From contig CM075991.1 of assembly GCA_038087875.1 (NCBI GenBank), positions 10,232,001-10,296,000 on the forward strand: a stretch of DNA of 64,000 nt. Reading direction: 5' to 3'. Within the stretch, counting starts at the first letter, position 1. The number at the start of each line of letters is the position of its first letter. The translations under genes were made by a program, and so were the position numbers. This DNA is from Malacoraja senta (lineage: Eukaryota). Below the pieces are notes generated by a model. The model saw only the letters and a program-made list of their open reading frames with translations, was not told where the DNA came from and did no database searches. Positions 1,761-59,835 of this stretch are shown one piece after another.

Positions 1761-1783
1761 TTAGACACAAATGGCTGGAGTAA

Positions 1784-2137
1784 AGGGCCTGTTCCACTGT
1801 ACGAGGTAATTCAAGAGTTCTCCCGAGTTTTCCCCTGATTTGAACTCGGAGAATGTCCGTAGCCGGTCCGTAGGAGTTCGTGGATGTCTCGTAGCGGCCC
1901 GTACTAGTAAAAAGTAACCATTTTTTTCATCACGAGTATTTTTTTACTCGTGGACATTTTTCAGTGTTGAAAAAACATCACGAGTTTACCGGATTTCCCG
2001 AGTACCTACCGTTACTCATACGAGCCGCTACGGGGACACCCACGAACTCCTACGGGCCCGCTACGGACATTCTACAAGTTCGAATCAGGGGAAAAACTCG
2101 GGAGAACTCTAGAATTACCTCGTACAGGCCAGGGCCT
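1784..2137. mobile_element. Harbinger-type MITE inserted in a Penelope-derived repeat
   Basis: Left TIR AGGGCCTGTTCCACT after TAA; degenerate right TIR before TTA. Confidence 0.82.
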
Positions 2138-2665
2138 TTACTCAGCGGGACAAGCAGCACCTCTGGAGAGAAGGAATGGGTGACGTTTTGGTTCGAGACC
2201 CTTCTTCAGACTGAAGACCCAAAACGTCACCCATTCCTTCTCTCCAGAGGTGCTGCTTGTCCCGCTGAGTTACTCCACCATTTTGTGTCTATCTTCTGTT
2301 TTAAACCAGCATCTGCAATTCCTTCCTACACCCTTAACCTACAAACCTGTACATCTTTGGAGTGTGGGAGGAAACTGAAGATCTCGGAGAGAACCCACGT
2401 GGTCACGGGGAGAAGGTACAAACTCGGTACAGACAGCACCCGTAGTCGGGATCGAACCCGGGTCTCCGGCGCTGTAAGCGCTGTAAGGCAGCGACGTTAC
2501 CACCTTGCCGTCTGGCTCAGATGTTATGTTCTTATACCCATTGTGGTGATAAGACTTGACCGGGGAATTTTCCAATCGTATCTGGCGGGCTATAGTATTG
2601 TCAGAGTGCTGTCTGTAGACAATGTGACATGACCCACAATGGATGGAATGAGTGTTGGACAAATT

Positions 2666-9525: not shown

Positions 9526-10405
9526 GTAAGCATGCAGGTACAGCAGGCAGTGAAGAAAGCAAATGGCATGTTGGCCTTCATAACAAGAGGAGTTGAGTAT
9601 AGGAACAAAGAGGTCCTTCTGCAGTTGTATAGGGCCCTAGTGAGTGCAGTTTTGGTCCCCTAATTTGAGGAAGGACATTCTTGCTATTGAGGGAGTGCAG
9701 CGTAGGTTTACAAGGCTAATTCCCCGGATGGCGGGACTGTCATATGCTGAGAGAATGGAGCAGCTGGGCTTGTACACTCTGGAGTTTAGAAGGATGAGAG
9801 GGAATCTCATTGAAACATATTATATTATTAAGGGTTTGGGCACGCTAGAGGCAGGAAACATGTTCCCGACGGTACACAAAAATGCTGTAGAAACTCAGCG
9901 GGTGCAGCAGCATCTATGGAGCGAAGGAAGTGTTCGAGTCTGAAGTCTGAGTCTGAAGAGGGGTTTCGGCCCGAAACGTTGCCTATTTCCTTCGCTCCAT
10001 AGATGCTGCTGCACTCGCTGAGTTTCTCCAGCATTTTTGTGTACCTTCGATTTTCCAGCATCTGCAATTCCTTCTTAAACAACATGTTCCCGATGTTGGG
10101 GGAGTCCAGAACCAGGGGCCACAGTTTAAGAATAAAGGGGTAAGCCATTTAGAACGGAGATGGGGAAACACTTTTTCTCACAGAGAGTGGTGAGTCTGTG
10201 GAATTCTCTGCCTCAGAGGGCGGTGGAGGCCGGTTCTCTGGATACTTTCAAGAGAGATCTAGATAGGGCTCTTAAAGATAGCGGAGTCAAGTGATTTGGG
10301 GAGAAGGCAGGAATGGGATACTGATTATGGATGATCACATTGAATGGCGGTGCTGGCTCGAAGGGCTGAATGGCCTACTCCTGCACCTATTGTCTATGGT
10401 CTATT
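9526..10405 (+). mobile_element. CR1 LINE 3' region interrupted by a Penelope-derived hairpin element
   Basis: AVKKANGMLAFI, VQRRFTRLIP, standard CR1 3' tail. Confidence 0.9.
9870..10080 (+). mobile_element. Short non-coding Penelope-derived fold-back element with 13-bp TSD
   Basis: TSD AACATGTTCCCGA at 9857-9869 and 10081-10093; ~60-bp inverted arms enclosing CTGAAGA-GGGGTTTCGGCCC-GAAACGTT. Confidence 0.85.
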
Positions 10406-14219: not shown

Positions 14220-14705
14220 TAGGGAGTACAGCGTAGGTTTACAAGGTTATTTCACATATGCTGAGAGAATGGAGCGGCTGGGCTTGTACACTCTGGAGTT
14301 TAGAAGGATGAGAGGATATCTCATTGAAACATATAAGATTGTTAAGGGCTTGGACACGCTAGAGGCAGGAAACATGTTCCCGATGTTGGGGGAGTCCAGA
14401 ACCAGGGGCCACAGTTTAAGAATAAGGGGTAAGCCATTTAGAACGGAGATGAGGAAACACTTTTTCTCACAGAGAGTTGTGAGTCTGTGGAATTCTCTGC
14501 CTCAGAGGGCGGTGGAGGCCGGTTCTCTGGATACTTTCAAGAGAGAGCCAGATAGGGCTCTTAAAGATAGCAGAGTCAGGGGATATGGGGAGAAGGCAGG
14601 AACGGGGTACTGATTGGGGATGATCAGCCATGATCACATTGAATGGCGGTGCTGGCTCGAAGGGCCGAATGGCCTACTCTTGCACCTATTGTCTATTGTC
14701 TATTA
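14220..14705 (+). mobile_element. CR1 LINE 3' region
   Basis: LGLYTLEFRRMRG..RTRGHSLRIRG..FFSQRVVSLWNSLP. Confidence 0.92.
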
Positions 14706-15472: not shown

Positions 15473-16724
15473 ACAACTTGTTGTCCTTTATTATGTAGTT
15501 TACAGAGTATCATGTCCACATGGTCTGTTGTGCTGTTCCAAGTAACAATGTCATTGTTCTCTTTGGGCCACATGACAATAAAACACTCTTGCCTCTTCGT
15601 CAAGAGGATTGCATGAGGTTGCGATGCCACTTGGACAGAAGCCCGTCGTCCAACAGTGCAGCTTGGCAGGGATCTACTGAACTGGAAGGTCCACCTTAGA
15701 GGAATTTTACTTTGCTCAGATGTGCCTCGAGGCTGAGCAACATGAATATCGTTGCAGCATCTGGGCAGATGTGTACAGGTGCAATGTCACCACGACGCAT
15801 GGCATTCTAGACAACGCAAACACGATCATTGGGATTGCACAGGGCAGGAGTGAATCATTGAATGACATTGATAAAATCCCTCAGGAGCAACGTTTTCCAC
15901 TCAGAGTGTAGTCCATCTCTGGAATGAGCTGCCAGAGGAGGTTCTTGAGGCAAATACAATGGCAACTCTTAAAGGACGTTTGGAAAGATATATGGATAGG
16001 AAGGGTTCAGAGGTGATGTGGGTGGTGAGCAGGCACATGGGACTAGTCCTGTATGTCATCTTACAGGATAACACACCACTAAAGCTTTTTACTGTACCTC
16101 GGTGCAAATGATGATAAACTAAACTGATAGTGGTCAGCATAGTGGGCCAAAGGGCCTGTTTCTGAGCTGTGCAGATTAACAGCTTCATGATATTCAGCCT
16201 CAGAAACAGACAGAAGATGTACCTTGTCACTTACACCCTTGTAAGGAAAATGATTGAGTTGCTGGTCATAGAATCACAGAGTTATACGACGAGGAAGAGA
16301 GGCCCGTCGGCCCAACATGTACCATCTACATTAGTCCCGCCTGCCTGAGTTTGGTCCATATCCCTCTAAACCTATCCTATCCATGTACCTGTCTAAATGT
16401 TTCTTAAACATTATGATAGTCCCTGCCTCAACTACCTTCTCCGGCTGCTCGTTCCATACACCCACCACCCTTTGTGTGAAAAAAAGGTTATCCCTCAGGT
16501 GCCTATTAAATCTTTCCCCCCTCACCTGAACCCTATGTCCCTCTGGTTTTCAATTCTCCTGCTCTGGGCAAAAGACTGTGCATTTACCCAATTGTTTCCT
16601 GTCATGAACTTGTACACCTCTATGAGAGGCGTCATTCACAAAGGCACATAAATAACAACCTGGAACAAACAGAGAGCGGTGGAAATATTCAGCAGGTCGT
16701 GCAGCATCCGTGGAGAAAGAAGCC

Positions 16725-17173
16725 GGACACCTCCGCTCGGTTCGCAATAACCAACCTGATCTCCCCGTGACTCAGCACTTCAATTCCCCCTCCCATTCTA
16801 AATCTGACCTTTCCGTCCTCGTGCTGGGCCTCCTCCATGGCCGGAGTGAGTCCCACCACAAATTGGAGGAGCAGCACCCCATATTTCGCTTGGGAAGTTT
16901 ACACCCCAGCGGTATGAACATTGACTTCTCCAATTTCAGGTAGTCCTTGCTTTCCCCCTCTTTCCCCTCCCCTTCCCAGCTCTCCCACAGCCCACTGTCT
17001 CCGCCTCTTCCTTTCTTCTTCCTGCCCCCCCAACCCAACATCAGTCTGAAGAAGGGTCTCGACCAGAAACGTCACCTATTTCCTTCGCTCCATAGATGCT
17101 GCCTCACCGCTGAGTTTCTCCAGCATTTTTGTCTACCTTTGATTTTTCCAGCATCTGCAGTTCTTTCTTAAAC
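16725..17173 (+). mobile_element. Penelope-like element 3' end: GIY-YIG endonuclease C-terminus plus terminal repeat with hammerhead motif
   Basis: HLRSVRNNQPDLPVTQHFNSPSHS..GLLH..KLEEQH.IFRLGSLHPSGMN is typical of the PLE GIY-YIG C-terminus; followed by a pyrimidine tract and CTGAAGA-helix-GAAACGTC at 17046-17073. Confidence 0.85.
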
Positions 17174-17659
17174 AGTTAATATTTCAAGTCATTTCAGTTC
17201 TGATTAATTATCAGTCTCAATTGATGAGTCAGTTTCTTCCCCCACAAATGCTGCCCGGAGTACTTCCAATAATATTCTGTCTATATTTTAGATTTCCCAC
17301 AGTGTTTCCATTTCAGCCCTTGAATAGAATTGCCTCTCTCTATTCTACACGCCTTGGATTGTGGCTTGAGGAATGACAGGGTGAGTGCTCAACAGCGGAC
17401 AAATGTCCATATGCACACACACTCTTCACCCGACAAACACATCATTCAGGAACAAGAGGGCCCCACAGCAGAAGCGTCCACGTCGCGGGGCTGGACACTG
17501 GAAGTATCCCGAGCTAATTCGGCTACCACCATCATCTATTGCGACAAGTGATGGCTCCCACTGATTGTCGCCGGAAGCTTGCGTCCTTTTCAGGACGGAT
17601 GATGACAGCGATGTCAACATTTTTCACATGGAAGATGGACATGAAAGAAGGACATAGAG

Positions 17660-20760: not shown

Positions 20761-21730
20761 CGCCAGAGGTACGTCTATCTGCTGGGAGATGAGCACTGCC
20801 CCTTGGATGGTGAATCTGTGGGCATGTTTGCCACAGAAGGCTGTGGAGGACAAGTCAGTTGATATATTGAAGGCAGACTGTTCAGATAGATTCTTGATTA
20901 GGACGGTTATGTGTCAGAGGTTGTGGGGAGAAGGCAGGAGGATAGGGCTGGGAGCCTGACCCACTGAGTTTCTCCAGCACTGTGTGTTTCACTCGGATGA
21001 TGATGAGTATGGAGAGAAAGTCTAAAGTGGGGAAAAAAACACACACACACAAAGTGCTGGAGGAACCCAGCGGGTCAGGCAGCATCTGTGGATGGAATGG
21101 AAAGAGGTGGTTTCAGATGGGGACTGTCCTACTCCAATCTGAAGAAGGGTCCCGACCAGAAACATCCTCTGGCCATTCCCTCCACAGATGCTGCCTGACC
21201 TGCTGAGTGCTTCCAGCACCTTGTGTTTTATTTCAAGTCTTTGGTTGGGGATGTGTTGGATGGTGGTTCAATGGTACTTCAGGAAGGCTGGCTCCGTCCT
21301 GGGGCGGAGTTGGATTGACTGGAGGTGGGTCTTGGAGGGGAGGATGCTCCTCAAACTGCGGAGCATCCTGGACAATACTAGCTCACCCCCTCCATGACAC
21401 ACTGGTCAACCTGAGGAGCACCTTCAGCAACAGACTGGTTCTCACCAAGATGCAGCACAGAACACCACAGGAGATCCTTCTTCCTGTGGCTATCAAACTG
21501 TACAACTCCTCCACCTTCTGTCGTGGGGTAGACTGAGGCTGACTCACCCCCACCCACCTCAATTCTTTGCACATCCCCAATCCTGGACTTTCCACGCGTC
21601 ACTTTAATTTCATGTTTCTTATATCTTATTGTGTTTTATGGCTGTTGCAGACCGATTTCCCCCCCCCCCCCCTTGATATATAACGTTCTATCATATCGCA
21701 TGATATCGTATCATATTGCCCGGAGAATAA

Positions 21731-22210: not shown

Positions 22211-24073
22211 TAGACTTCTGCAATGCAAGGCAACGTACCATTCACCTTCCCAAATGCTTGCTGGTGTTTCACTTTAGCTTCCAATGATTCATGTACAAGG
22301 ACATCAGGGACCCTTTTAATAGAAATCCCTTCAAAACTCTTACCGTTAACAAATATATCTGAGCACTCCAATTTCTTTTCCATCAGTGCGAGTTGGTCTT
22401 GAAGGAACAAAGCACTCGGTCATCGGAATGAGACTAGTGGGTAAGTGGGTTACATTTTAAGGAAAGGTTTGGCTTTTATTCCCAGGGTTGGACTGACCAC
22501 ATTTGGGGAAATTGATGGGAGCGAGTGTTTCTTTGATGGGGGAGAAATGGAGGCAAACCTTGCAATGTTCAGTTGGGCCATTTGATGGGTGATGGTGATT
22601 GAGGTCAACTGGAAACATGAATATAGAGATGCTGTCTCTGCGGAGTTTGCACGTTCTCCGTGAATGCAGAATTAAATTATATGCAGAAAGGAAGGCATGG
22701 TGGCGCAGCGGTAGAGTTGCTGCCTTACAGCGCCGGTGACCCGGGTTCAGTCCTGACTACGGGTGCTGTCTGTGTGGAGTTTGTACGTTCTGCCTGTGAC
22801 CTGCTTGGGTTTTCTCCAGGTGCTCCGGTTTCCTCCCACACTCCAAAGACCTACAGGTTTATAGGTGAATGGGCTATTGTAAATTGTCATGGAGGGGGTG
22901 GAGCTAGTGTAGGGGGGGGGGAGATTGCAACCTACGCGTGGTCCACCCTGTTTCGACTAATGCAATCAACCTGACATGCACAAACAGAAGATCAAATAGA
23001 ACAAGTTGACCTACAACTTTAGGCTGTGCACGCCATACGCAAGAAGAGGTGTACGGGTGATCACTGGCCAGCATGGCTTCGATGGGCCGAAGGGCCTGTT
23101 TCCACGCTGTTCTCTAAACTAAATCTAAACAGACCATCCTTCAGAGGCAATTAGATCAAATATCAGGTAGGAAACCAATTGGGGCCATGACTTTCTCAAA
23201 CTATTCCACAATAAGCTATGTTTAAGAAGGAACTGCAGATGCTGGAAAATCGAGGGTAGACAAAAGTGCTGGAGAAATTCAGCGGGTGCAGCAGCATCTA
23301 TGGAGCGAAGGAAATAGGCAACGTTTCGGGCCGAAACCCTTCTTCAGACTGATCTGAAGCTATAAGCTATTGAGGGTTTGTAGACACATAATTTGTCAGT
23401 GCATAGACCTTAGGACAGTTGCTAGAGCCGCTACCTCACAGCGCCAGAGACCCAGTTCAACCCAAAACGTCACCTATTTCTTTTTCTTCAGAGATGCTGC
23501 CTATGCTGAGCTACTCCAGCTTTTTGTACCCATCATCCGTTGTATAGAGGTCCATTATTACGAGGGTTTACTGTATCTGTGTTTGACAGGGATGATCAGA
23601 TTCAGTGCACCAGTCTTGCAGTGAAGCTTGCAATTTTTGTCCCTAACACTGAATGCAATGGATTTTTTTTGCTTCAGACTAAACAAAAACCTGCAGCTTC
23701 TGAAGTTTCAAAGGTGCAATCAATAATCCTGATAACCCCCTTTTGCAGCATTATTGATTAGCTGATAGCAGGAGGTGATGTGTGTTAGATAGATGTGCAG
23801 ACTCCACTCAAAATCCTTTGCAGGATTACCCATTCACCAAAGAAGACAGCGTGAACTGTGATTGTACTGACAACAAATATGTGTGTCGGTTCACAGTTGC
23901 AAACATGCCTCTTAGGCTGCACAAACATGTCATTTACGGGCAGGAAAAGGCCAGTCAACATTCAAGCCACTCCACAATTTAATATAATTCTGTGGTCGCA
24001 GTGTCATGCAGCACAGCATCAGACCCTTCGGCCCAACGTGTCCGTGCCGACCCCCAGACACTACCACTATCCT

Positions 24074-27700: not shown

Positions 27701-28872
27701 GGATTTTACTACAAAAGGACGTTTGCAAGAACGTGTTGTTATTTCCGACAATGATTGCACATAAAAAGGACCACAGTGGCTGTAAGCTCCACTCGATGCT
27801 CTTTGCTGTAAAGCACTATCTGACGACCGGAGGCTCTGAAACACTCTTCAGTAATGCAAGTGTTTTTTTTTTAGCTCTGCAGTGTTTCTTTGTGTAGAAT
27901 ACTTTGCAAGAGTGTATCAGACCTTGACAACAAAAAGAACACATTCAGGCTGGGATTACAATACTCAGGGGTTATAGGGAACTCCCGAAGAACTGAGGTT
28001 TGGTGACTTACTGCTGCATTCTTCCTAATGTTACAGACCGACTGCATTACATAAACAGCACTGTCTTGCACACGGGGGACAATTTACAATTTTTACAGAA
28101 GCCAATTAACCTACAAATCTAAAGTAGACACAACATGCTGGAGTAACTATCGCAGTCGCTGCCTCAAAAAGGCTGGCAGTATCATCAAGGACCCACACCA
28201 TCCTGGCCACACACTCATCTCCCCGCCCGCTACCTTCAGGTAGAAGGTACAGGAGCCTGAAGACTGCAACGACCAGGTTCAGGAATAACTACTTCCCCAC
28301 AGCCATCAGGCTATTAAACTTGGCTCGGACAAAACTCTGAACATTAATAGCCCATTATCTGTTTTTTGCACTTTATCAGTTTATTTATTCATGTGTGTAT
28401 ATATTTATATAATGGTATATGGACACACTGATCTGTTTTGTATTCATGCCTACTATATTCCGTTGTGCTGAAGCAAAGCAAGAATTTCATTGTCCTATCA
28501 GGGACACATGACAATAAACTCTCTTGAATCTTGAATCTTAACAGCGGGTCAGGCAGCATCTCTTCTCTTCTCTTCGACGCCCATTCCTTCTCTCCAGAGA
28601 TGCTGCCTGACCCGCTGAGTTACTCCAGCATTTTGTGTCTACCTTCGATTTAAACCAGCATCTGCAGTTCTTTCTCACACAACCTACAAACCTATACGTC
28701 TTTGGACTGTGGGAGGAAACTGGAGCACCCGAAGAAAACTCGCGCAGTCACAGGGAGAGCGTACAAACTCCGTAAAGATAGCACCAGCAGTCAGGATCGA
28801 ACCCGGGTCTCTGGTGCTGTGGGGCAACTCTACCGCTGTGCCTGGTCTGGGATCTGCAGAAGAATTGGACCC

Positions 28873-31800: not shown

Positions 31801-34737
31801 TATGGTCTCCTCAAGGTATGACCGTATGACATACTTACACGATAGAACATGGAACAGTATAGCACAAGAACAGGCCCTTCGGCCCACAACGTCTGTGCTG
31901 AACATAATGTCAAAATAAACTAATCTCATCTGCCGAAGATAGACACAAAATTCTGGAGCAACTCAGCGGGTCAGGCAACTTCTCTGGAGAACATGGATGG
32001 GGGATGTTTCGGGTCGGAATCCTTCTTCCAGTCTGATGGGTTCCAACCGCAAACGTCACCTATTCCTTTTCACCAGAGTTGCTGATTGACCCGCTGAGCT
32101 ACTCCAGCATTTTGTGTCTATCTTCGGTATAAACCAGCATCTGCAGTTCTTTCCTGCACATAATCCCATCTGCCTGCACATGGTCTATATCCTTTAATCA
32201 TTTGAATAGCCATGGGCTGATCTCACAGCCTCTCAATGCAAGATTATTTTTGCATGTAGAGGCTGTTCAATGGGCACATGGATATTTAGATGATTAAGGG
32301 TTGTAGATCCATGTGCAGGCAGGTTGTTCCACAGAAGCACAACGAAATCTCTCCTAAATTATGACCAAAATTCCTGAAGTATTAGGAGCACTTTCTGCAC
32401 CATTTCAATATTGAACTGGTTTTACATTTTGACTGGGGTTGCCAGTACGGAGGGGAGTGCAAGGAGATGTAAATGGGGACATACACAGGCGGAATTAGTG
32501 AGCAAGAACATAGTAAATGAAATGAAATGTCGAAATATAGTGAGGTCATTTATTTTGCTAAACGTTACAGAAAAGCAGAGTTGTTACAAATGGCGAGAGA
32601 TTGGGAAAAGTTGATGTTCAGAAGGACCTAGGTATGCTTGTACATCAATGAAATCCAACATGCAGGTGTAGTGGGTGGAATTCATTGCCACAGAAGGCTG
32701 TGGAGGCCAAGTCAATGGATAAGAAATAGATATAGATTCCTGATTAGTACGGGTGTCAGGGGTTATGAGGAGAAGGCAGGAGAATGGTGTTAGGAGCGAA
32801 CGATAGTCCAGTCATGATTGAATGGCGGAGTAGACTTCATGAGCCGAATATGAATTATGAATATCAATTATGAATTTATGATTATAACTGGACCCACGCA
32901 CAAGCTTGGCCATACACGTCCTCTGAGGGACGTTCTCTGAGGGAGGGCTATATGTATGTATTTATGTATGTACTTAATCTATGAACCACTGTTGTATAAC
33001 GTTAGTACCTCCACCAATGTAAAGCACTTTGGTCCACGAGAGTTGTTTTGTAAATGTGCTATAGAAATAAAAGTGACTTGACTCGACTATGATTAGGAAG
33101 AGATAGTTTTTATTATGATCTGAATCCAGCGGTAAGGAAGTTTCACTGCAAATACACTGGGCCTTGATTGAGACAGTGCCTGGGAGTACAATGTATATTT
33201 TTGGTCTACTTACATAAAATAAAAAGGATTTACTTACCATTGAGAAGTGAAGATGCGTTAGGCTCCAGATTCCAAGGATGTCAGGCTTGTTGCACGAGAG
33301 TTTGAATACATTCGTCCATCTTCCCAAGTGTGGAATTGGTGATCACATAGAAGGGCACAAAATGCTGTCGTAATTGAGTGGATCAGGCAGCATCTCTGGA
33401 GAACATCGATAGGTGATGTTTTAGGAAACGTCACCAATCCATGTCCTCCAGAGATGGTGCCTGACCCGATTAGTTACTCCAGCACTTTGTGTCCTCTTTG
33501 TGTAAACCAGCATTTGCAGTTCCTTCTTTTTACATAGCGATCGCATACAACTGAAAACATTCTCAAGTTTGACGCAGGAAAGTTGAGGGAGTCCGAAACC
33601 AGGGGTCAGTCTCTTTTTAAAAAGGGGGCAGACGTTTACGAGATGTTTTTGAAATTTGGGAAGATTTCTTCACCCATTGGGCGGTGAATCTACGTAAATC
33701 CTTACTCTGTGTCAGCCGTGTCCGTGAGTTCATTCAAAACTTTAGATTGATTACGGGAATCAAGGGATAGGGGGGTAGTGCAGGGAAATGGCACCAAGGG
33801 AAATCAGTGCATCCTTTGCAAAACCTATTTGAGGCTGCTCATAACATGAATGCAGGAAGACATTTAACTTTGGCTTTAAGGGGGAGATGCAGGATGTGCA
33901 CTGGATTACAAACCAGCACTGCATTACAAATTGCACTGGATTACAAACCAGTCCAGTATTCAACTGCCTCCTGAGGCTCCAGTGACCATTGTGATGGTGT
34001 TGGTGGTTAAGAGGTGCTGAGAGGCAATGGCAAAGGCTTCGACCCTGGTTGCTCAGCCTTTGATCCACGAATTGATAACAAAATACAGGCCATCCAGTGT
34101 GACAAACGGGTCCCGTATTTACAGATGTCCTCAGGAACACAAAACCACTTGATATGGTGAACGTACCTCCATAGTATCGTAATGAATGGCAGCAAATACA
34201 CCTAGTACTGACAAGAATTAACAATCACTAAAAGTGGAAAGGGAAGAAGAAACTACTTCTGCCGTTCGTAAGGAATGAACATTATTATATGTCTGAGGGA
34301 CTTTTGAATTTAATATTATTGTGGGAGCTTGTTCGTATGTAGGGGTGTCCATTAGTTCATAACCTGGGAGAGGCCTGTACCAATATAGCCCCAGCTTGTT
34401 CAGGGTAAACCAGTGGTGAAATTTAACTATGGAACCAACTAATACTGAAAATTGTGCTGCTTTATTAATATTGTTGCAAACAGAGTCTGCGCCTTTGAGC
34501 GTGCTGTAAAATATGAAATATTGCTGTTGAGCAAAATCCTCTTAAAGTGTCCTAATTCTGCTCCTAGGACATATGAAGTTATGAAAATGCATATGGCATC
34601 CAATGGTCCATTGATCTCAGGTGGGGCAAAATTAAGCAGCGGTGGATGCAAAGCAAGCAATTAATTATGTGGAAGGCAGAGGGTTAACACCAAGATATTC
34701 TGTAGCAGCTGCCCTTTCATTCAGCTAAATTAAGATG

Positions 34738-35224: not shown

Positions 35225-37850
35225 ATGGCTCAACATAATTTATTTATGTTAAAATGTACAGAGGTCTTTGAAAGTACTTGCTAGAAAGAAAAATGATATT
35301 ACATACAAGGGAGATGAAGAGGGAGTGTGGCCGGTGCTGGCAACTGTGTACACAGGCCATGTTAATCCCTCCTCGTAGCTTACAGTCACCATGTACAAGT
35401 ACAAAGGCTACAAAAAAGAAAGCAATATAAACAGACATGAATATTCAGCTTTTTACATGCGGCTTGGAGTCTGGAGGAGGTCTATTCACACACACTATAA
35501 GTCTTGAGAATTTATTTTTCTTAAAATAGCTTCAATATTCTACAACAAAGATAGAAAAACTCTAGAGATGGAATGAAATGTGAGTTCTTTAAAAGGCATC
35601 TGAGAATCACTAACAGATTCAGTTAAGATTACCCAAGTTTAGCTGCTAAAAATACCTCTTAACAGAATTGAAAAATGACAAGTACCAATATTATGTAGGA
35701 TAAATTCATTTTTAATATAGAAAAACATTTTCTATAATAATCCTAAAGTCAAAATGAGCCAGTTTAGCTTTCAAAAAAGGAAGCTGCCTGATCCAACAAA
35801 CCAAGAACACCAGAAACAATGAGAAGGAGAAAAGAAAAATCTTCTTTGTCAATCTGTAATATATCTGGTGCTCTGGGCTAAAACTGGGTTGTTTTTTTTT
35901 CCTTTTCTTTTTTAAAAACATCTTCCCTTCTCCCTCCCACCCCACCCCAAATCAACAGTATTCCATCAATCACACTTGAAGGCCAGCCCAGAAGTGTGGA
36001 GTGGTTTTTTTTGTTGTTGTTTTTTTTTGTTTTGATGGATGCAATTCCAATAATGGGACTCGCTACGAATTAAAAAATAAACCACCGGGTGTGACACGGG
36101 CCCACAGGCATACAAGTGGGCGAGTTGCCAAACATGCATGTTTTTCAAACTCTCGCCCGCCGCTGTGGGAAGATTTCACATCACATCATGTTCTTTTGTT
36201 TTCCTTTGAAAAAGCATGAGATTAATCGGACGGTGGGGAAAAGAGAAGGATGCGACTGGTGAACGGACTGCGTGGTGTGGACCTGCACCGATGATACACA
36301 TCTCTGGGCTGGGTTGGCTGCCAGCTACAATCCAGCAACATTTCCTAACCCCCCCCACCCCCTCCCCTATCACTTGACCTTACATGGGTTGCATGGTGGT
36401 GGGCTTCAGAAACAGGGAGCCTGCCACTTGCCTTATCTGACGACATCCTGGCTGTAAACCTCTCTTTGACAGTTCAGTACCATTTATCACCACTGAACCA
36501 TTTCCCTCGTCTCACATTCAAGATGATTATTTTTCCTTTTGGTACCCACAGCTCTGGGGTTTGGGATGCCGACGAGCATCTCTTAACGTACCCCCCTCAC
36601 ACTGTCCTGTCGATGTACATACACCACCAATTCCTCTCTTACAACCCATCTCCTTTGTCTCCACCTGGAAGATACCAGGGGATTGCTGAACTCTGATAAC
36701 CAAACACCATTGACAGTGTCAGATGGTGGCAAACAAGAGTCAAGATAATCCTCTCCTTAACTACGCGACTCCTGAGCTAATCTTGCCACCTAGTGAGCTA
36801 ATTGAGACTGGATTTGGAAGCAGTGTGTGATTACGGGGTCGGGCAGGTGAGGGAATTAAAAAAAAAACGTTGTTGCAAACATAGCAGTTTTTTTTGGATC
36901 TGATAAATATTCTGAACTGGAACCAAAAATACATAGTCTGACAAATCTGAATAGGTTTCTCATGATTGAGAATTTTACTTAAGAAAAATAAAGTGGAAAT
37001 TAAATGTTTTTTAAGCCTCAAATGTTCAGGACCCTGGGCTGTCCTTCGAAAGTGCCGGGAACAAATACTGTCAATTCTCATAAAAAAATAAAGGCGTACG
37101 AGTGAAATGGCTTGCAGTGACACAAGAAGCAATGTTAAAAACATAGTTATAACATACGTGAAAATGCTCTTGGCCTGTTGCATGCTGCGCTCGAGTCAAA
37201 CTCAATACCAACGGGTGGGAAAAAGGGTGCCCTCAGCATTAAGGTTGGAAGTCCCATCCACAAGCGCACAAGCGATCTGGTTTCACCTACTGGCATGGGG
37301 GGGGGGGGGGGGGGGGGTTGGGGGTGGGGGTGGGATACAGAGAGATCAATAAATTACAGCCACACCTGCAACAATATCACCAAGGCAGAGTATGGAATAA
37401 GTGCCTCCTGCCCTGTGCCAAGTCAATAAACGGAGACCTGGCCAGTCCTCCCTCAGGGGCTCACATATCTATGGACTCTATAAAAATGTGGACTGCACAC
37501 ACAAACTGAAAGATTAAAAAAATTAAAATATAAAAAGCAGATAGTTTTTCATTTCTACAATTCATTAAGTAAGGCTTCTTTTAATTAAAAGATTTCTTGG
37601 TGCATGGTTCCTTAAACCATTTTTTTTCTTATTGAATTCTGTTGCAGAATTTCTCTTTCTTCTTTTTTTCTCTCTCTCTCGGGGCTGGGAAATTAAGGCC
37701 AAGGCGCTGCGAACATGGCCTTAAGCAGTTCATGAAATTCCTATGTCTACAGCAACCGTTCTATTTGAAATTTCCATTATTTCTGTTGTCGAAGAGTATA
37801 AACAGTGGCTTTATCTTTTTTTTTTAAATGTCGCCTCCAAGAAGCTTCCC
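35225..37850 (-). other. KAT6A: Probable KAT6A 3'UTR
   Basis: AT/U-rich, no recognisable TE over 2.6 kb, ends near minus-strand AATAAA at 35239-35244 (second AATAAA at 35511-35516). Confidence 0.65.
35239..35244 (-). terminator. Candidate polyadenylation signal AATAAA for KAT6A
   Basis: Plus-strand tttatt at the distal edge of the TE-free block, followed on the minus strand by TG-rich sequence. Confidence 0.55.
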
Positions 37851-38774
37851 TCATCTTCTCATGTACGGGCTATTTAGTGATTGCTTGGCCATGCCAGTGT
37901 TCATGTAGCTGTGGTGAGAGGGGCCAGTGTACATCACATTGCCGTGGTGTTGGGCTGCATGTGTTGCTGCGTAGGGCTGGCTGCCCATCATGCCCATCTG
38001 CATCTGCATGGGATACTGGGCGGTTTGGTTCATGTAGGCCGCGTTGCCGTGGTAGCCGCTGTTCATCATCGGCTGGCTCATGCGGTAGCTGCCCATGGGG
38101 TTCAGCGGGTTCATGTTCATGGAGTTGACGTTGTAGGCGGGGGCGGGCATCAGGTTGACGCCCATGTTCATGCCCCGCTGGACCGTGATGGCGCGCTGGG
38201 CCAGGGCCGGGGTGTGCGGCCGTAGATCTGCTGCTGGTGGGTGGCGGCGGCGGCGGCGGCGGCGGCGGCCGGCAGCGGAGCCGACTTGGAGCGGTTGGAG
38301 ATGTGGCCCTTGGCCGGCATCTGGCCCTGCAGCCGCTGGGTGTGGGGGATGCCGAGGTTGGAGGTGCCCATGTTGCACTGCAGCAGGGGCGAGGACAGGT
38401 TCATGGAGGGCGACGCCAGGTTGGGCGGCGGGGTCATGGTGGCCTGCACTTGGGGCGTGCCCGCCAGCGAGTGGGGCGTGGGGGCCAGCTGAGCCAGGCC
38501 CGAGTTGGACAGAGACACGCTGGTTGCATAGGAGGTCACAGCGGCCGAGTGGCTGTAAGGCATGGCATGATGGTCCATGATGGTGTTGGTCAGCTGCTGA
38601 AGCCTGGCCAGGCTGAAGTTGGCCGAGGGCTGAGGGTAGCCTCCGGCTCCAAAGTCCCCCTGGCCCATTCTGTCGTACAGGCTCATGGCGGCAGCGTTGG
38701 CCGACTCGGGGATCTCCATCAGAGTCATGGGGGCCGTGGTGAAGCTGTTACTCATGCTGCACTGGGACAGCGGT

Positions 38775-38840
<66 letters not shown>

Positions 38841-38905
38841 CTGTTGCTGCTGTTGCTGTTGGGGTGGCTGCTGCTGGGGCTGCTGCGGTGGTGGCTGCGG
38901 CTGGG

Positions 38906-38954
<49 letters not shown>

Positions 38955-40555
38955 CGGGGGCGGCTGCTGCTGCTGCTGCTGCTGGTTGTTGCTCGGGGGC
39001 CTCTCGATGGCACAGCTCTGCGGCGACTTCATGTTGCAGTTGGCCGGGGCAGTGACGCCGCCCTGCTGCATCATGCTGCAGCTGCTGTTCATGCTGGCCA
39101 TCTGCTGGGTCACCACGCAGCTGTTCTGCGTCAGGCTGCTGGAGGAAGACAGGCCGCTGTACGAACAGCTGGTCTGCGAGGTGTTATTGCCGCAGATGCT
39201 GCCGCCCATGGTGGAGTCGTAGCTGCTGGGGTTCTCGTAGTTTTCCGTTGTACTCTCGATGCTGCCCAGGTCGCTGAAGCCACTGTCGACCACCTGCTGC
39301 GAGTGGTCGGACACAGAAGGTACGTCCATCATGGGGCTGGTCTCCATGTTCTGCATGGAGGGGGCGGACAGGGAACCCTGCTCGGGACTTATCTGCGTGT
39401 AGTTGCTCTCCAGGGTCGGCATACTGGGGCTACTGACCGAACGGACCGACTGGCTGGGGTGCGACTGAACGGAAGAGATGGGGCTGTTGTGGCCCGACTG
39501 CTGGCAGTCCTCCACCATGGTTATCTGCGGGCTCTCTTCAGCCTGGTTGTAGCTCTGCAAGTTCTGGCAGGCCTCCAGGGTCTCCGCACAGTCCTGGTAC
39601 GTCCCGTCCTGCTCACCGTTCGTCTCCTGGGTCAACGACTGAACGGCCTGCACGGTTTCCAGATCAAGCTCGCTGTGCGAGATATCTTCCTCCTCTTCCT
39701 CGTCCTCCTCCTCTTCCTCCTCCTCCTCCTCGTCTTTGAACTCCGGGATCAACGTCTCCTTGCTGTCTTGATCGTCGACGCGGTCTTCGTCTGAGGGCGG
39801 CACGAGCTCAGAGTCCAGAGACGTGTCGTTTGCCTGATCTTCTTCGGAATCTGCATCCATCACATTTTCACACTCAATATTTTTATCCAGGGCGCTCGTC
39901 TCTAAAAAACGCTCTTGGATGGGAGATTCCTCCTTCCCGTTCTCCTTTACAGTCTCCTCCACCTTCTTGTCATCGGGGTCCAGATGCCCTTCGTCTTCAT
40001 CGTCGGCATCGTGGTCTTCATTCTGGTTGAGTTCTTCCTCCTCCTCCTCTTCCTGCTCGTGCTCCTCGTCAGTGTGCCCCTCTAGCTCCACGGATTCAGA
40101 CTTCTCCTCGGTCTCAACGTCCGCCTCCTGCTCCTCAACCTTCGCAGGGGGGCTGTGAGATTGGGGCGGCATTCTCTGCACGTCGCACGGCACCTCCTCC
40201 TCCAGCTCCTCCTCATCCTCCTCTTCCTCCTCGTCCTCTTTTTTGTAGGCGACGGGCAGGTCCGCAACCTTCGACTCCACGACGGAATTCCTCCTCTCCT
40301 CGCTGCGGTTGGGACGGCCTTGCTTCGCGACAGCATTGGCCGGCGGTGGACTTCCGTTCTCCACTGCCGCCATCGATCGGGCGAGCTTAAAGCCTGGCTT
40401 ACGCCCGGGCTTTTTCTTCCATTTGATGGTCCCCCGCTTCACGCCTTTCGGCCACCCTCTCTTGCGCTTCAACACCAAGGGCGGGGATTTGGGTACGGGA
40501 CACTCCTTGACTTTATCTTTCCTCAGGGGGGCAAAGGATTCAGGCGCATTTTCTC
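37851..40555 (-). CDS. KAT6A: KAT6A last coding exon (acidic, Ser-rich, Q-rich and Met-rich regions); frameshifted in this sequence
   Basis: tttttcag|[90 protein letters not shown], ends [14 protein letters not shown]. Homology is split over ORFs 38748-40478, 38168-39013 and 37851-38378. The PYMRR end, HNSSVVTET motif and ANK1 neighbour favour KAT6A over KAT6B. Confidence 0.93.
38775..38985 (-). repeat. CAG/CAA polyglutamine-coding repeat in KAT6A
   Basis: About 70 codons, mostly Q with P interruptions. Confidence 0.97.
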
Positions 40556-42258
40556 CTGAAAAATGAAGGAAACACGAGTCAGAGTTCAGATTTAGGCAAG
40601 CAAAACGGTGAATACTCTAAACAGAGAAATTCCCTAATGGGGACTTAATGGCACTCCAATGTCCTTCAATACAGCGGTTGTGGGCACAAATTTCCTCGGG
40701 CAATGCGCAATACCAACCACTTCCACTATGTGGTGTCAAACAAGAGATTGCCCTGCCAACATAGAACATGTTGCAAGTACTCAGAAGATCAGACGGCACG
40801 TGTGGAAAGAGAAGCAGAGTTAATGCTTCAAGTCACTGATCGTAATTGATGTTCCAAGATTCTACCTTTGGGGCAACATTAAACTACTGCTTCATGAATT
40901 ACTTTACTTACTATTAAGTATTTGTTATAACACCAGGATAAACATAGAAAATAGGTGCAGGAGTATGCCATTCAGCCCTTCGAGCCAGCACCGCCATTCA
41001 ATATGATCATGGCTGATCATCCAAAATCAGTACCCCGTTCCTGCTTTCTCCCCATATCCCCCGATTCCGTTAGCCCCAAGAACTATATCAAACTCTCTCT
41101 TGAACACATCGATTAAGCACTCAACCAAGAAAACTAAGCTCAATGCCAGTAGATAAACTGCCTATACACACTTATGCTTTGGGGCAATAACTAACTTTGT
41201 ATTCAGTAATAAGCTAATACATCTTAACAAACACATAAGCTAAATGTTCACGCAAGAAACCCAATCCCAATGCCACATGGGAATGTAAAATGCCTTTACA
41301 CAGTTAAACTATGGGGTAACAAAAACTAGACATGAAGATGCCAGTAAATCATTGGGATTACCAAGTGGGCACCTCCCTTCACTGGTATTTCGCTGAGTTA
41401 GGCCCACGACACCTCGGGAAGGCTCAAGTTAGTTTGATGCATTAATCTGGATAGCCAGAGTCACAAACTTATACGTTTTATCGCACCAGCATGTATTATT
41501 TATAATTTGCTGTGAACCGAGATGAAGGGGAAATTGGAAGGCAAATTGTGCCTAAGTGGACACTGAGCAACAGACACGATGGGCTGGACTCAAATGCCAG
41601 CAAGGATGCCAGATTCCTGTCCTTGGCAGACACTTGCAAAATATGAGCTTTTGATACGTCTGGAAGCTGTGTTTCTTCTCCTCTCCTGTAGGCCCATAAT
41701 CACCCGTTTAAATTGCAATATCCCAGGACGTGTCGGCTTCTCCGCCATTCGATACAATTCAAAAAAGGCTCACCGGATCTTTATTTCCACTTTCCTGTCC
41801 TGCCCATCTATACAATTCCTTGATTCCTCTCTAGTCCAAAAATCCATCTCAGCTTTGAACAAAGTAATCCATACTATTAATTCAATCTTGCTCCTAACGT
41901 TATCATATTGTCTCTTATATGTATGGTCAATAATGGAGCTAGCTTGTGCTTTCAAAGTAATATGCCCAATCAACCCCAACTTGGGTAACTCCATAGAAAC
42001 ATATAGGTGCAGGAGGAGGCCATTCGGCCCTTCGAGCCAACACCGCCAACATGGGAATGCCTTCCATTCCCATGTTGTGGTTTGCCCTGCAGTCATCTTC
42101 TCCAATCTACCTATGGTAGGTCCATAGGAAGATTGACTATAGGTAGACATCTCAACTCTTCCTCATTTCACCATTTTCATATTTTTGGTCTCTTCCCACA
42201 ATAATTGAAAAGAGAATCCAACTTCCGCCACTGAAAGGGCCATGCGACAGTCAAATAC

Positions 42259-56301: not shown

Positions 56302-58147
56302 TTACAAACATATTAACAGATTAACTCCCCAGGTTAATTCCTAAGTTAATAGTTTAGTTTAAAGATACAGCGCGGTAACAGGCCCTTGGTCCACCAACCA
56401 GTGATCCCCGCACACATTAACACCACCCCACACGCACTATGGACAATTTTACATTTTGTGCCAAGCCAAACCTGTACATCTTTGAAGTGTGGGAGGAAAC
56501 TGAAGATCTCGGCGAAAACCCACACAGATCACGGGGAGAACGTACAAACTCTGTACAGACAAGCACCCAGTCAGGATCGAACCCGGGTTTCTGGCACTGC
56601 TAGGCAGCAACTCCACCGCCACGTTACAATAAACTACAGATACTGGGATCTTGAGCACCTTGCGATTCGCCTGAGTTTATAGGCTATTGGATTGAGGGTT
56701 TGCCATAAAAGTCTCAGCGATCCAAACATTTCTTTCTTAATTTTAATAATCTTTAATTTTGTGTTTTTTTACAATTTGCAAGTAATTATCATTTGCAGCA
56801 TAGAATTCTCCGCCTTCAGAAATAGTGTCCATTCTGGTTTATCATAAATTAGTGACAAATATGAATTTTTCTAAATGTAATCACTGGGTACAATTTTCAG
56901 TTTTGGCCCGGTGGTGTTCAAAGTACTTCTGTGTACCCTGGGCTCATGGGCAACAGCAATAATTGGCAGCAGTAATGAGCATCCAGCTGTGGCCTAACTA
57001 GCATCATCTGGATCATCCATATTCTGTGCTTCGACTAATAAAGAAGAACATCTTGTAATGTACAGGAAGGAACTGCAGATGCTGGTTTAAAAAGAGTTTG
57101 CCTTTCCCCTGACTCTCAGTCTGAAGAAGGGTCTCGACCCAAAATGTCACCTATTCCTTTTCTCCAGAGATAGCGTCTGACCCGCTGAGTTACTGTAAAT
57201 TACTCCAGCTTTTTGTGCCTGTCCTGTAATGTATCTTCATCTCCATTAACATGCTCCAGGGTTCTTCTATTCCTCCACATCTCTCAGTATCTTCCCATTG
57301 ATTACATAGTCCCACGACTTGTTTCAATTCGCTGAATGCCTCACCTCACACTTTTCTGGATTAAATTTTATTCGCCTTTTACTTTGCTACATGACGAGAC
57401 TATCTACATCTTCTTACAGTCTAAACCTCTCGTCCTCGCTGTCAACTATACAGCCAATATTTTATCAAGTGCTAATTGTTTTATCATACCATGTGCATTG
57501 AAAAAGAGTCGGGGTCATACAGCATCGATACATGCCCTTTGGCCCAACTTGCCGTGCCAACCAAGATGCCCCATCTACACTAGTTCCACTTGCCTACGTT
57601 TGGCCCATATCCCTCTAAACCTGTCCTATGGTTTCTAAATCTAAATGGAATCCAAAGCATCATAAATATAAAATTCAAAAGGCAAACGGGCTGAGCACTG
57701 TGGCCTCTCTCACCGTTAATAGCGTTTAGTCACAAAAGCACCTGTCAACTTGTGCTCTTTTCATCCTGTCACTGACTCAAATTTGCTGCTCTCCTTCGGA
57801 TCCCATGGGTTTGCGTCATATTTAACACACTACTAATAGAACAATGTCAACAGCCTTGCTAAACTCCAAGTAGACTACATCACACGTTGCCCTTGTCAAC
57901 TCTCGTTTCCTCCAAATCAAATTAGCAGGCATTTCCTTTGTAAATCCAAGCTGACAGTCCTTGAATAACCTGTGCCTTTCTGCATTTAGGTGTAGGTTGC
58001 TTCCTAAATAATGTGTCTGACGGTGAAGTTAAACTAACTGGCCTGTAGTTACTCGGTTATTCCTTTTAAAATAAAACATCAGCAGTTGTTCAGTTCTCTG
58101 GAACCACTCATGTAACCAATGAAGCTTGGAAAATGGACAGAACCTTA

Positions 58148-58546
<399 letters not shown>

Positions 58547-59329
58547 CTATAATCAATAGACAATTGATAGAAAAAATGACGTTAACATTTTAAAACTCTG
58601 CATTACCAAAGTCAGTAGTTCGTCAACATCTAAAAGACGAGCATCTAATCATCAAGAAATAATTGTCATTTGAAGGACGACTAGGGGAGAGTAGACGGTG
58701 AAAGAAAAACTGCTTATGGAGGAAAAGGGGTACCAGGCTAAAAGTGCATCTTGGAAGGAATCACTAAAATGTTTCCCACAGATCACAGAACAATACCACA
58801 CAGGAATAGGCCCTTCAGCCCACAATGTCCATGTCAAACGTGATGCAACGTTAAATAACAATTTTTGAATTGTAGTTGATTTCTCATGAAAAGAAAGCAA
58901 ACCAAAGAGAACACAATCCTTGTCCTTGAAAAAGGTTCACAGTTTAATTAAGGGGAGAGTTTAGATTCTACAGTGCAAGAAAGCAATGTAGATCCTAGGA
59001 ATTGATGATGCTGTTAATAAAAAAGACACACAAAATGCTGGAGCACCTCAGCAGGTCAGGCAGCATCTCTGGGGAACATGGATAGGCGACATTTTGGATT
59101 GGGATCCTTCAGACTGATCGCAGTAGGGGGGGGGGGGGGAAAGAAAGCTGGAAAAGAGGTGGGGCCGGACAAAGTCTGACGGGTGATAGGTAAACAGGCA
59201 CAAAATGGTGGAGTAACTCAGCGGGATCATCTCTGGAGAAAAAGGTAACGTTTCGGGTCGAGACCCTTCTTCAGTCTGAAGTGTCCCCGACTCCTTCTCT
59301 CCAGAGATGCTGCCTGACCCGCTGAGTTA

Positions 59330-59547
59330 AGGGCCTGTCCCACTTTCACGACCATTTTTTACTCGTGGACATTTTTCATCATGCCAGAAAAAAACGCCCC
59401 GACCTACTTGATGCCACGAGTACCTACGACGAGCATCACGGCCTGCTACGACCTACCTACGACCTTGTGACGACCATGCTGCGAGTATGAGTCAAGGGCA
59501 AACTCGGCAGAGGTCGTGAATTAGGTCGTGAAAGTGGGACAGGCCCT
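59330..59547. mobile_element. Harbinger-type MITE, 218 bp, in a Penelope-derived repeat
   Basis: AGGGCCTGTCCCACTTTCACGACC...GGTCGTGAAAGTGGGACAGGCCCT, TSD TTA. Confidence 0.92.
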
Positions 59548-59835
59548 TTATTCCAGCATTTTGTGTTTATCTTCAGAGTAAACCAGCATCTACAGTTCTT
59601 TCCTGCACAAATGATAGGTGGATGCAGGTGACAACGTTTTTCTGATTAGCAGATGGTTGGACAAAGGCCAGAGATGAACAGACAAAAAGTGTTAGATAGC
59701 AAAGCAGGGACATTCAAGTTGTGTTTTTATGTGACAGATGAAGGGTTTAATTTAGTTTAGTTTAGAGATACACTAACGTTTCTCAGGACAATTACAAAGC
59801 AGCGTTGTTGTATGCCTGGAACCATGGGAATATCA

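Follow-up and report, generated by a model that had tools for sequence, protein, structure and literature searches.

Judging from its sequence, the insert at positions 9870-10080 of the window (the whole 64-kb stretch of DNA that was analysed) consists of two head-to-head pieces of the terminal repeat (pLTR) of a Penelope-like element (PLE), one of which carries 35 extra bases. We consider it likely that the fold-back arises anew at each insertion, and that it is a stereotyped short product of PLE insertion rather than a template for further copies. The insert and its surroundings are composed of the following features.

9857..9869 (+): left TSD, 13 bp, from TSD comparison with a random-pair null
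9871..9929 (-): inverted pLTR arm that begins 7 nt past the hammerhead cleavage site and reaches 3' site A, lacking the tail and the hammerhead core; matches the right arm at 57/59 positions
9930..9949 (+): junction filler in which the right arm's first 6-7 nt appear in two further copies; single in the window
9950..10080 (+): forward pLTR arm, bounded by the fixed 5' edge and 3' site B
10046..10080 (+): PLE 'tail', 35 nt, between sites A and B, on one arm only; depth halves past the equivalent of site A in sequencing runs
10081..10093 (+): right TSD, 13 bp
9530..10400 (+): host LINE fragment (probably CR1-type), split by the insert; its empty-site paralogue lies at 14221-14699

The 13-bp TSD, AACATGTTCCCGA, bounds the insert at 9857-9869 and 10081-10093, matches at 13/13 positions, and scores 13.0 compared with a maximum of 9.25 among random position pairs (n=391). 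The inverted arms (9867-9929 and 9987-10049; 63 nt, 95% identical, 57 nt between them) give the insert a predicted fold of -124.9 kcal/mol (z -15.3), which none of 200 shuffled sequences equalled. The host LINE, which we take to be CR1-type from its C-terminal ORF, has an empty site in its paralogue at 14221-14699, which aligns with the left flank up to 14383 and with the right flank from 14384. The TSD, the inverted arms, and the splitting of a CR1 copy had been put forward in an earlier reading of the letters without database searches (the sequence-only reading), and all were upheld, the CR1 label as a probable one. The insert is asymmetric, as the right arm extends 35 nt (10046-10080) beyond the end of the left arm and the hammerhead core is found only on the right. 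With the predicted cut site as zero, the right arm spans -30 to +100 and the left arm, in reverse complement, +7 to +64, with 20 nt of filler separating the two; we infer that the filler repeats at 9930-9949 stem from re-priming or template slippage. An identity as a MITE or a DNA fold-back element was rejected, given that the 35-nt tail lies outside the arms and that the TSDs are 8-15 bp and variable rather than short and fixed. A match of the insert to MIR1507 in Rfam (37.6 bits, cut-off 73) reflects hairpin shape only.

The connection to a PLE rests on a GIY-YIG fragment elsewhere in the window, whose 3' end (17043-17173) is identical to 9950-10080 of the insert at 118/130 positions. This bears out two further proposals of the sequence-only reading, that the fragment ends in the same sequence as the insert and that the insert is linked to a Penelope-like element with a minimal hammerhead, as the pLTR follows the end of the GIY-YIG ORF.

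16728..16943 (+): PLE GIY-YIG endonuclease, C-terminal 71 aa (P0001), with 62-75% identity to proteins of skates and rays
16940..17044 (+): pyrimidine-rich (81%) spacer, 105 nt, with GT at its start and AG at its end; a candidate counterpart of the Penelope pLTR intron
17041..17174 (+): pLTR piece still joined to coding sequence, with the palindrome TCAG-T-CTGA at 17041-17049 as the 5' hot spot

The closest named matches of P0001 are from Leucoraja, Rhinoraja, and Hypanus. A Pfam search with P0001 alone gave no match, its near homologues score below the GIY-YIG cut-off, and a score above it was reached only in P0017. The homologues lead to proteins combining RT and GIY-YIG with a DKG motif and a CX4CX2C linker; the CX2-5CxxC linker was seen in P0003 (74% identical to P0001) and P0005, and the fragment in the window begins downstream of the linker. 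According to the portions of PMC8557442 available to us, the DKG motif is a mark of PLEs and the CX2-5CxxC linker marks Neptune and Nematis. The parent element is thus, on these sequence features, probably an endonuclease-bearing PLE of the Neptune type, and its family is very abundant in skates and rays. A Poseidon label was dropped once the homologues showed the CX4CX2C linker. A full-length partner from this species did not turn up. The subfamily haplotype next to the insert's own also occurs attached to GIY-YIG sequence.

Several further observations were made around the GIY-YIG fragment. It is flanked by an older, diverged head-to-head pLTR pair at 16655-16721 (-) and 17233-17314 (+), and the younger PLE piece apparently inserted into this older fold-back at 16655-17314. 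RNA reads over the GIY-YIG end (16722-17025) are strand-biased by ~2.4:1, with the first mate on the plus strand, and those over the pLTR part are even; the excess is probably antisense RNA, and the bias may reflect selection against sense coding-bearing copies in host transcripts. The public skate gene models P0002, P0003, and P0004 fuse this endonuclease end to unrelated proteins, and these fusions are likely annotation artefacts or exonised repeats.

In the window, the family comprises 22 loci with 31 arms, about one locus per 3 kb; the recurrence of the arms had been recognised by the sequence-only reading, although its figure of about 15 was too low. Nine of the 22 loci are two-armed, with an inverted 5'-truncated arm placed head-to-head with a direct arm. 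The copies on which the argument draws are as follows.

1762..2331: two arms that meet at the palindrome centre, the left one interrupted by a subsequent insertion; TSD not found
23220..23361 (-): one arm only, sharing its subfamily with the insert at 9870-10080; tail present, TSD of 9 bp
28120..28680: two arms, neither with a hammerhead core; TSD of 14 bp (1 mismatch); a subsequent insertion interrupts the left arm
31936..32159: two-arm copy, 14-bp TSD (1 mismatch); arms differ in subfamily haplotype (70/90)
33349..33533: two-arm copy, junction in GAAA; 6-bp TSD, not above chance
57060..57219: two-arm copy, arms non-overlapping, one being just the inverted tail and the other a tail-less arm; TSD of 12 bp (1 mismatch)
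59193..59609: two arms that meet at the palindrome centre; TSD of 8 bp; interrupted by a subsequent insertion

With locus boundaries placed by eye, TSDs of 8-15 bp exceed the 99th percentile of the null in 8/22 loci, and none is above chance in 14/22. The tail is present on exactly one arm in seven of the nine two-arm loci and on both in none; the other two are the locus at 21048-21232, where a clear tail is found on neither arm, and one that is too diverged. Pattern scans for further loci returned none in viral contigs and, with two patterns, none in metagenome contigs. The copy at 59193-59609 is nested in an older, longer copy at 58995-59650. Two MITE-like insertions at 1785-2139 and 59330-59548, presumably of the PIF/Harbinger type, have related TIRs and hit the same TAA/TTA of the pLTR arm.

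The sequence-only reading had proposed that the ~210-bp fold-back is itself mobile, being transcribed and re-inserted whole by the PLE enzyme, and the clean TSD, strong hairpin, and intact core of this copy, as well as the many related loci, would fit such a unit. However, a copied unit would keep its junction, and the junctions here differ. The junctions of the nine two-arm loci in this window (inverted 5' end, forward 5' end) are (-32,-12), (+7,-30), (+7,+7), (-7,-31), (+21,+3), (-25,-31), (-6,-7), (+67,-50), and (-32,+3), all 9/9 of which differ, with the nearest pair 15 nt apart (summed). No junction or length is shared among the nine, and the 41-nt junction of the insert occurs a single time in the window with up to 6 errors allowed. 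The insert's nearest relative, the same-subfamily copy at 23220-23361, is single-armed with a TSD of its own, the two-arm locus at 28120-28680 lacks a hammerhead, and in young loci each arm has its closest match in its partner. No opposite-strand joint at high depth is present among the 15 joints listed of 310, which is weak evidence in view of the saturated tables. Taken together, these data make independent mobility of the fold-back very improbable.

What the copies do share is their ends. The 3' ends fall at two sites 35 nt apart, A (about +60 to +66) and B (about +100), and of the 14 arms that reach -29, 10 stop between -33 and -29, as do 7/8 of those bounded by a TSD or a partner arm. The stop rate in this interval is 0.19 per base versus 0.014 just downstream, a statistic that is post hoc and uses hand-set coordinates. 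Depth was followed in four runs aligned to 16722-17200, three being contig sets and the fourth poly(A) RNA; these runs share 0.56, 0.32, and 0.20 of query words or are unindexed, and come from this species or relatives. Depth steps up at 17041/42 in all four (10.2-, 9.0-, 9.4-, and 24-fold), falls past site A to 0.53-0.73 of the body, and stops at site B, with ends at 17138 and 17174. The loose ends before 17043 (986, 876, and 124) and 17044 (678, 888, and 816) are true insertion edges, because the consensus upstream of them is random (agreement 0.31-0.34). At 17041, agreement is 0.36-0.49 and the ends are mixed with the upstream sequence of another subfamily, so part of the depth step at 17041/42 is due to the inclusion of upstream sequence from other subfamilies. 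The view of the copies as extreme 5'-truncation products therefore holds for inverted truncated pairs and fails for random truncation; rather than a continuous random spectrum without structure, there are two fixed 3' ends and a 5' hot spot. Within the window, then, 3' ends and the 5' edge are fixed, a common junction or length is lacking, and TSDs accompany 8/22 loci.

The hot spot coincides with a 9-nt palindrome, TCAG-T-CTGA, at 17041-17049, ~30 nt upstream of the cut site. The junctions at 2210 and 59275 turn at its centre, with the native symmetry of 4 bp extended to 7 and 6 bp, while the symmetry is 5 bp in a single-arm copy and 0-4 bp in 9 of the other 10 copies listed, the remaining row being mis-centred. 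By computation, two cDNA ends can pair at the palindrome with -7.5 to -8.5 kcal/mol. We take the TCAGT bases at the 5' edge to match the initiator consensus. The palindrome also falls at the end of the pyrimidine-rich spacer and resembles a splice acceptor. In the Penelope of Drosophila virilis, the intron terminates on the 5' side of helix I (from passages in PMC4209133) and transcription starts 46 bp before the intron (from passages in PMC2377424). Three causes of the 5' stop, none exclusive of the others, can accordingly be put forward. The RNA may have its 5' end at the initiator-like TCAGT, to which we give nearly even chances; joining driven by the palindrome is a rather doubtful cause, and a block where the intron has its 3' end, by analogy with Penelope, an unlikely one. 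The last consensus letter is G before 17044 in 3/3 runs listed and before 17043 in 1/3, which offers a lead, though nothing beyond one, to a cap-copied start, and a subfamily variant could give the same letter.

Two other sources for the ends were considered and set aside. Hammerhead cleavage was rejected as the origin of the 5' ends, as there is no loose-end peak at 17073/74 among those listed. A spliced RNA template is disfavoured, in that the 15 joints listed of 310 do not include 16939->17045 and the loose ends show nothing like an exon in their consensus.

The hammerhead itself is present as proposed in the sequence-only reading, with CUGAAGA from 9953, helix II at 9961-9972, and GAAACGUU at 9973-9980.

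9951..9982 (+): minimal type I hammerhead; core CUGAAGA at 9953-9959, extra base at 9960, helix II of 4 bp at 9961-9972

The CUGANGA and GAAA boxes, an NUH site, helix II, and a palindromic helix III are all found at 9951-9982, with a predicted cut after 9980 (GUU), a helix I of 2 bp, and a G10.1-C11.1 pair. Helix III is loop-less and in need of a second copy, for which the inverted arm cannot serve as partner, and the probability of helix II in the whole insert is 0.08. Both boxes, helix II, and at least 2 helix I pairs are retained in four of the window's eight matched cores. A Rfam search of the window gave 6 matches at E<=1, none of them to a hammerhead family, and the best structure in a predicted dimer co-fold was not the active hammerhead dimer. 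In these models the hammerhead appears as a passenger that is weak, dimer-dependent, and not what sets the ends. Of the 7.3 million records in the poly(A) RNA run, 13,006 aligned, and 93% of these continue into other sequence; pLTR reads are about equal by strand (3296 vs 3024), and no position was found at which many RNA molecules start or end, in a library of a kind that misses small circles. The pLTR RNA is passive read-through. As for RNA editing of the hairpins, this run is richer in A>G and T>C sites but also in C>A and others, and its RNA comes from an unmatched individual. Joints that repeat the hammerhead (17043-17080), stepping back 38 nt and often with one G between, were observed in two contig sets (depth 576 and 176; 6 and 5 contigs), and such 38-nt tandem duplications could, from their sequence, form an active dimer in cis.

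A retrozyme-like family had also been suggested, in which a hammerhead-cut circular monomer RNA would be re-inserted by rolling-circle reverse transcription. A type I hammerhead is present, and accounts of non-LTR retrozymes (passages in PMC7229834 and bioRxiv 10.64898/2026.07.22.740005) describe elements that are likewise non-coding, carry a type I hammerhead, and are related to pLTRs; the latter source derives retrozymes from pLTRs and places them in a cartilaginous fish. Joints from 17174 back to 17041-17044 were also found in DNA contigs (12-21 contigs each in two contig sets) and in 3 RNA reads, and may be head-to-tail tandems or neighbouring copies. However, in the same two sources, the head-to-tail tandem array is the defining arrangement of animal retrozymes and yields circular RNA, whereas the copies here are dispersed, head-to-head, and often core-less. 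None of the 23 tandem-repeat (TRF) rows in the window has a period above 21, the ends do not lie at the cut site, and helix I has 2 bp, with helix II at a probability of 0.08 in the full insert. The RNA likewise lacks a pile-up of begins or ends, runs on in 93% of cases, and is of about equal strandedness, albeit in a poly(A) run that would miss small circles. We accordingly attach next to no credence to a retrozyme origin.

How the two arms come to be made anew can be outlined with reference to a lizard PLE protein which, in the portions of PMC11167929 available to us, cuts and extends both target strands in vitro, initiates at two internal start sites that bound the tail, requires RNA to +172, downstream of those start sites, does without cleavage by the hammerhead, and by prediction forms a dimer. 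This reference is a Poseidon element rather than a Neptune element, and its use here crosses clades. The PLE protein would nick both target strands 6-15 nt apart, giving rise to the TSD. Each nick would then prime reverse transcription on sense RNA, one at the end of the tail (B) and one at its start (A), a step that the lizard protein makes reasonably probable. Both cDNAs would usually copy one RNA molecule and stop within ~130 nt, mostly at the 5' foot of the hammerhead, and their 3' ends would be joined through the TCAG-T-CTGA palindrome or through microhomology and slippage, and then filled in. Overlapping arms would mean that one stretch was copied twice, either with displacement on a single RNA or with two RNAs as templates; the discordant arms at 31936-32159 suggest two RNAs at least once, or later conversion. 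A more specific and quite tentative version would have a dimeric enzyme prime both nicks at the sites bounding the tail of a single sense RNA and copy one stretch two times, with the cDNAs halting at the hammerhead foot and annealing at the 9-nt palindrome. Should the lizard result hold here, copies whose ends lie at A or B, having no downstream recognition region, would be dead on arrival.

The main mechanistic rival, which shares the pLTR origin, is a single nick and a single cDNA that snaps back by self-priming, possibly on an antisense template, with the tail-less end produced by endonuclease resolution. Palindromic junctions are found here, and parts of PMC3846280 argue for self-priming from rotifer copies; the arms are also 96-98% alike and mutual best matches in 3/7 loci (54/55, 57/59, and 48/50), and there is a mini-hairpin at the 5' end of 23220-23361. 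This comparison of arm kinship covers seven of the nine two-arm loci, leaving out one that is too diverged and one without arm overlap, and in the other 4/7 the partner arm is not the closest, ranking 6-14 among 21-29 arms, which counts against the two-nick scheme outlined above. Snap-back copying is opposed by the discordant arms at 31936-32159, by single-arm copies that bear TSDs and end at either A or B, and by the two start sites and both-strand extension demonstrated in vitro (passages in PMC11167929). Evidence against it also comes from the non-overlapping arms at 57060-57219, which are expected of two primers on one RNA, the first not passing the second, and are not expected of snap-back copying. 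In L1 twin priming, two primers on one RNA give rise to an inverted 5' piece inside one TSD. This locus fits that scheme exactly, whereas most other copies here have overlapping arms in which a stretch has been copied twice. We therefore regard snap-back copying as unlikely, while keeping it in serious consideration.

A different modification would retain de novo formation and change the template, which would often be a solo pLTR (~132 nt plus read-through) that acts as a master, without an ORF and under a promoter of its own, and is mobilised in trans to give a non-autonomous family with a fixed 5' end, in the manner of a SINE. This would account for the sharp 5' edge on an initiator-like motif and for hammerhead bins that are 2.0-7.0x deeper than the GIY-YIG end in the runs. 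In parts of the literature, pLTRs suffice in trans in rotifers (PMC3846280) and non-autonomous PLE derivatives are known (PMC8557442; bioRxiv 10.64898/2026.07.22.740005). On the other hand, the RNA up to +172 on which the lizard protein depends would be missing from copies with their ends at A or B, if the requirement is transferable; the haplotype next to the insert's is found attached to GIY-YIG sequence; and no discrete RNA start was seen in the poly(A) run. A solo master is, on balance, improbable.

De novo formation from two primed nicks leaves the copies with an architecture that, for the most part, has already been described. As reported in the portions of PMC3846280 and PMC8557442 available, EN+ PLEs have adjacent inverted pLTRs, a tail of 30-40 bp on one end, TSDs of 8-10 bp, and palindromes at the junctions, and the insertions treated there resemble those described here in their head-to-head pLTRs, one-end tail, TSD size, junction palindromes, hammerhead, and upstream GIY-YIG ORF. 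The copies in this window differ from them in that mostly the pLTR piece alone is present, in their frequency of about one locus per 3 kb, and in a sharp 5' edge at the hammerhead foot, for which no description was found in the available portions of these two papers. The architecture being already published, what is new may be the sharp 5' edge, the counted one-tail rule, and the non-overlapping locus. A limited literature search found no account of this PLE family in skates or of PLE twin priming.

The closest biochemical comparison is with PAc, the Poseidon element of Anolis (PMC11167929), which shares the two start sites bounding the tail, AC-rich ends, extension of both strands, and a dispensable hammerhead, as far as the available sections report. 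It belongs to another clade, whereas the homologues here have the Neptune/Nematis linker, and the joining of cDNAs lies outside that study, which in those sections leaves open the steps after both-strand extension. Metazoan PLE hammerheads, in the available text of PMC4209133, share with this one the extra base between 9 and 10.1, the G10.1-C11.1 pair, and a palindromic, loop-less helix III, and are likewise mostly single dispersed motifs that also occur as opposite-strand pairs. In comparison with the Schistosoma motifs of that paper, the helices here are shorter (2 bp for helix I and 4 bp for helix II), whereas a 2-bp helix I is also seen in Drosophila virilis (PMC4209133).

The formation of the inverted copy and tail of PLEs is still an open question in the available parts of PMC3846280, which proposes self-priming on an antisense template. 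The short, clean products of this family, its one-tail rule, and its fixed 5' edge discriminate between models of the PLE mechanism. Should the dimeric, two-site priming outlined above prove correct, the head-to-head, one-tail architecture of PLEs would be explained without an antisense template, and the skate genome would serve as a test set. Hairpins of 60-90 bp, which are common in skate introns, may also matter as double-stranded RNA. Inverted Alu pairs in primates, which matter as double-stranded RNA, provide an analogy for the skate hairpins.

Two other features of the window fall outside the PLE family. The minus strand carries a KAT6A-like acetyltransferase gene, at 37850-40616 with exons to ~60300, and the insert at 9870-10080 is ~28 kb beyond the gene's last exon, which contains long poly-Gln runs and gave a first-pass ORF with an apparent frameshift near 38750. 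An HDV-like ribozyme at 17447-17524 (+) matches the CPEB3 family in Rfam at 46.2 bits (cut-off 35, E 3e-9), occurs once in the window, immediately ahead of an assembly gap, and is outside a CPEB3 gene context; a literature search on it found nothing specific. When paired by hand, P1 is 6/6, P2 6/7, and P3 3/3, P1.1 has its full 2 bp, and P4 is degenerate, with a C at the catalytic position 17514, and the ribozyme is possibly the 5' end of a LINE.
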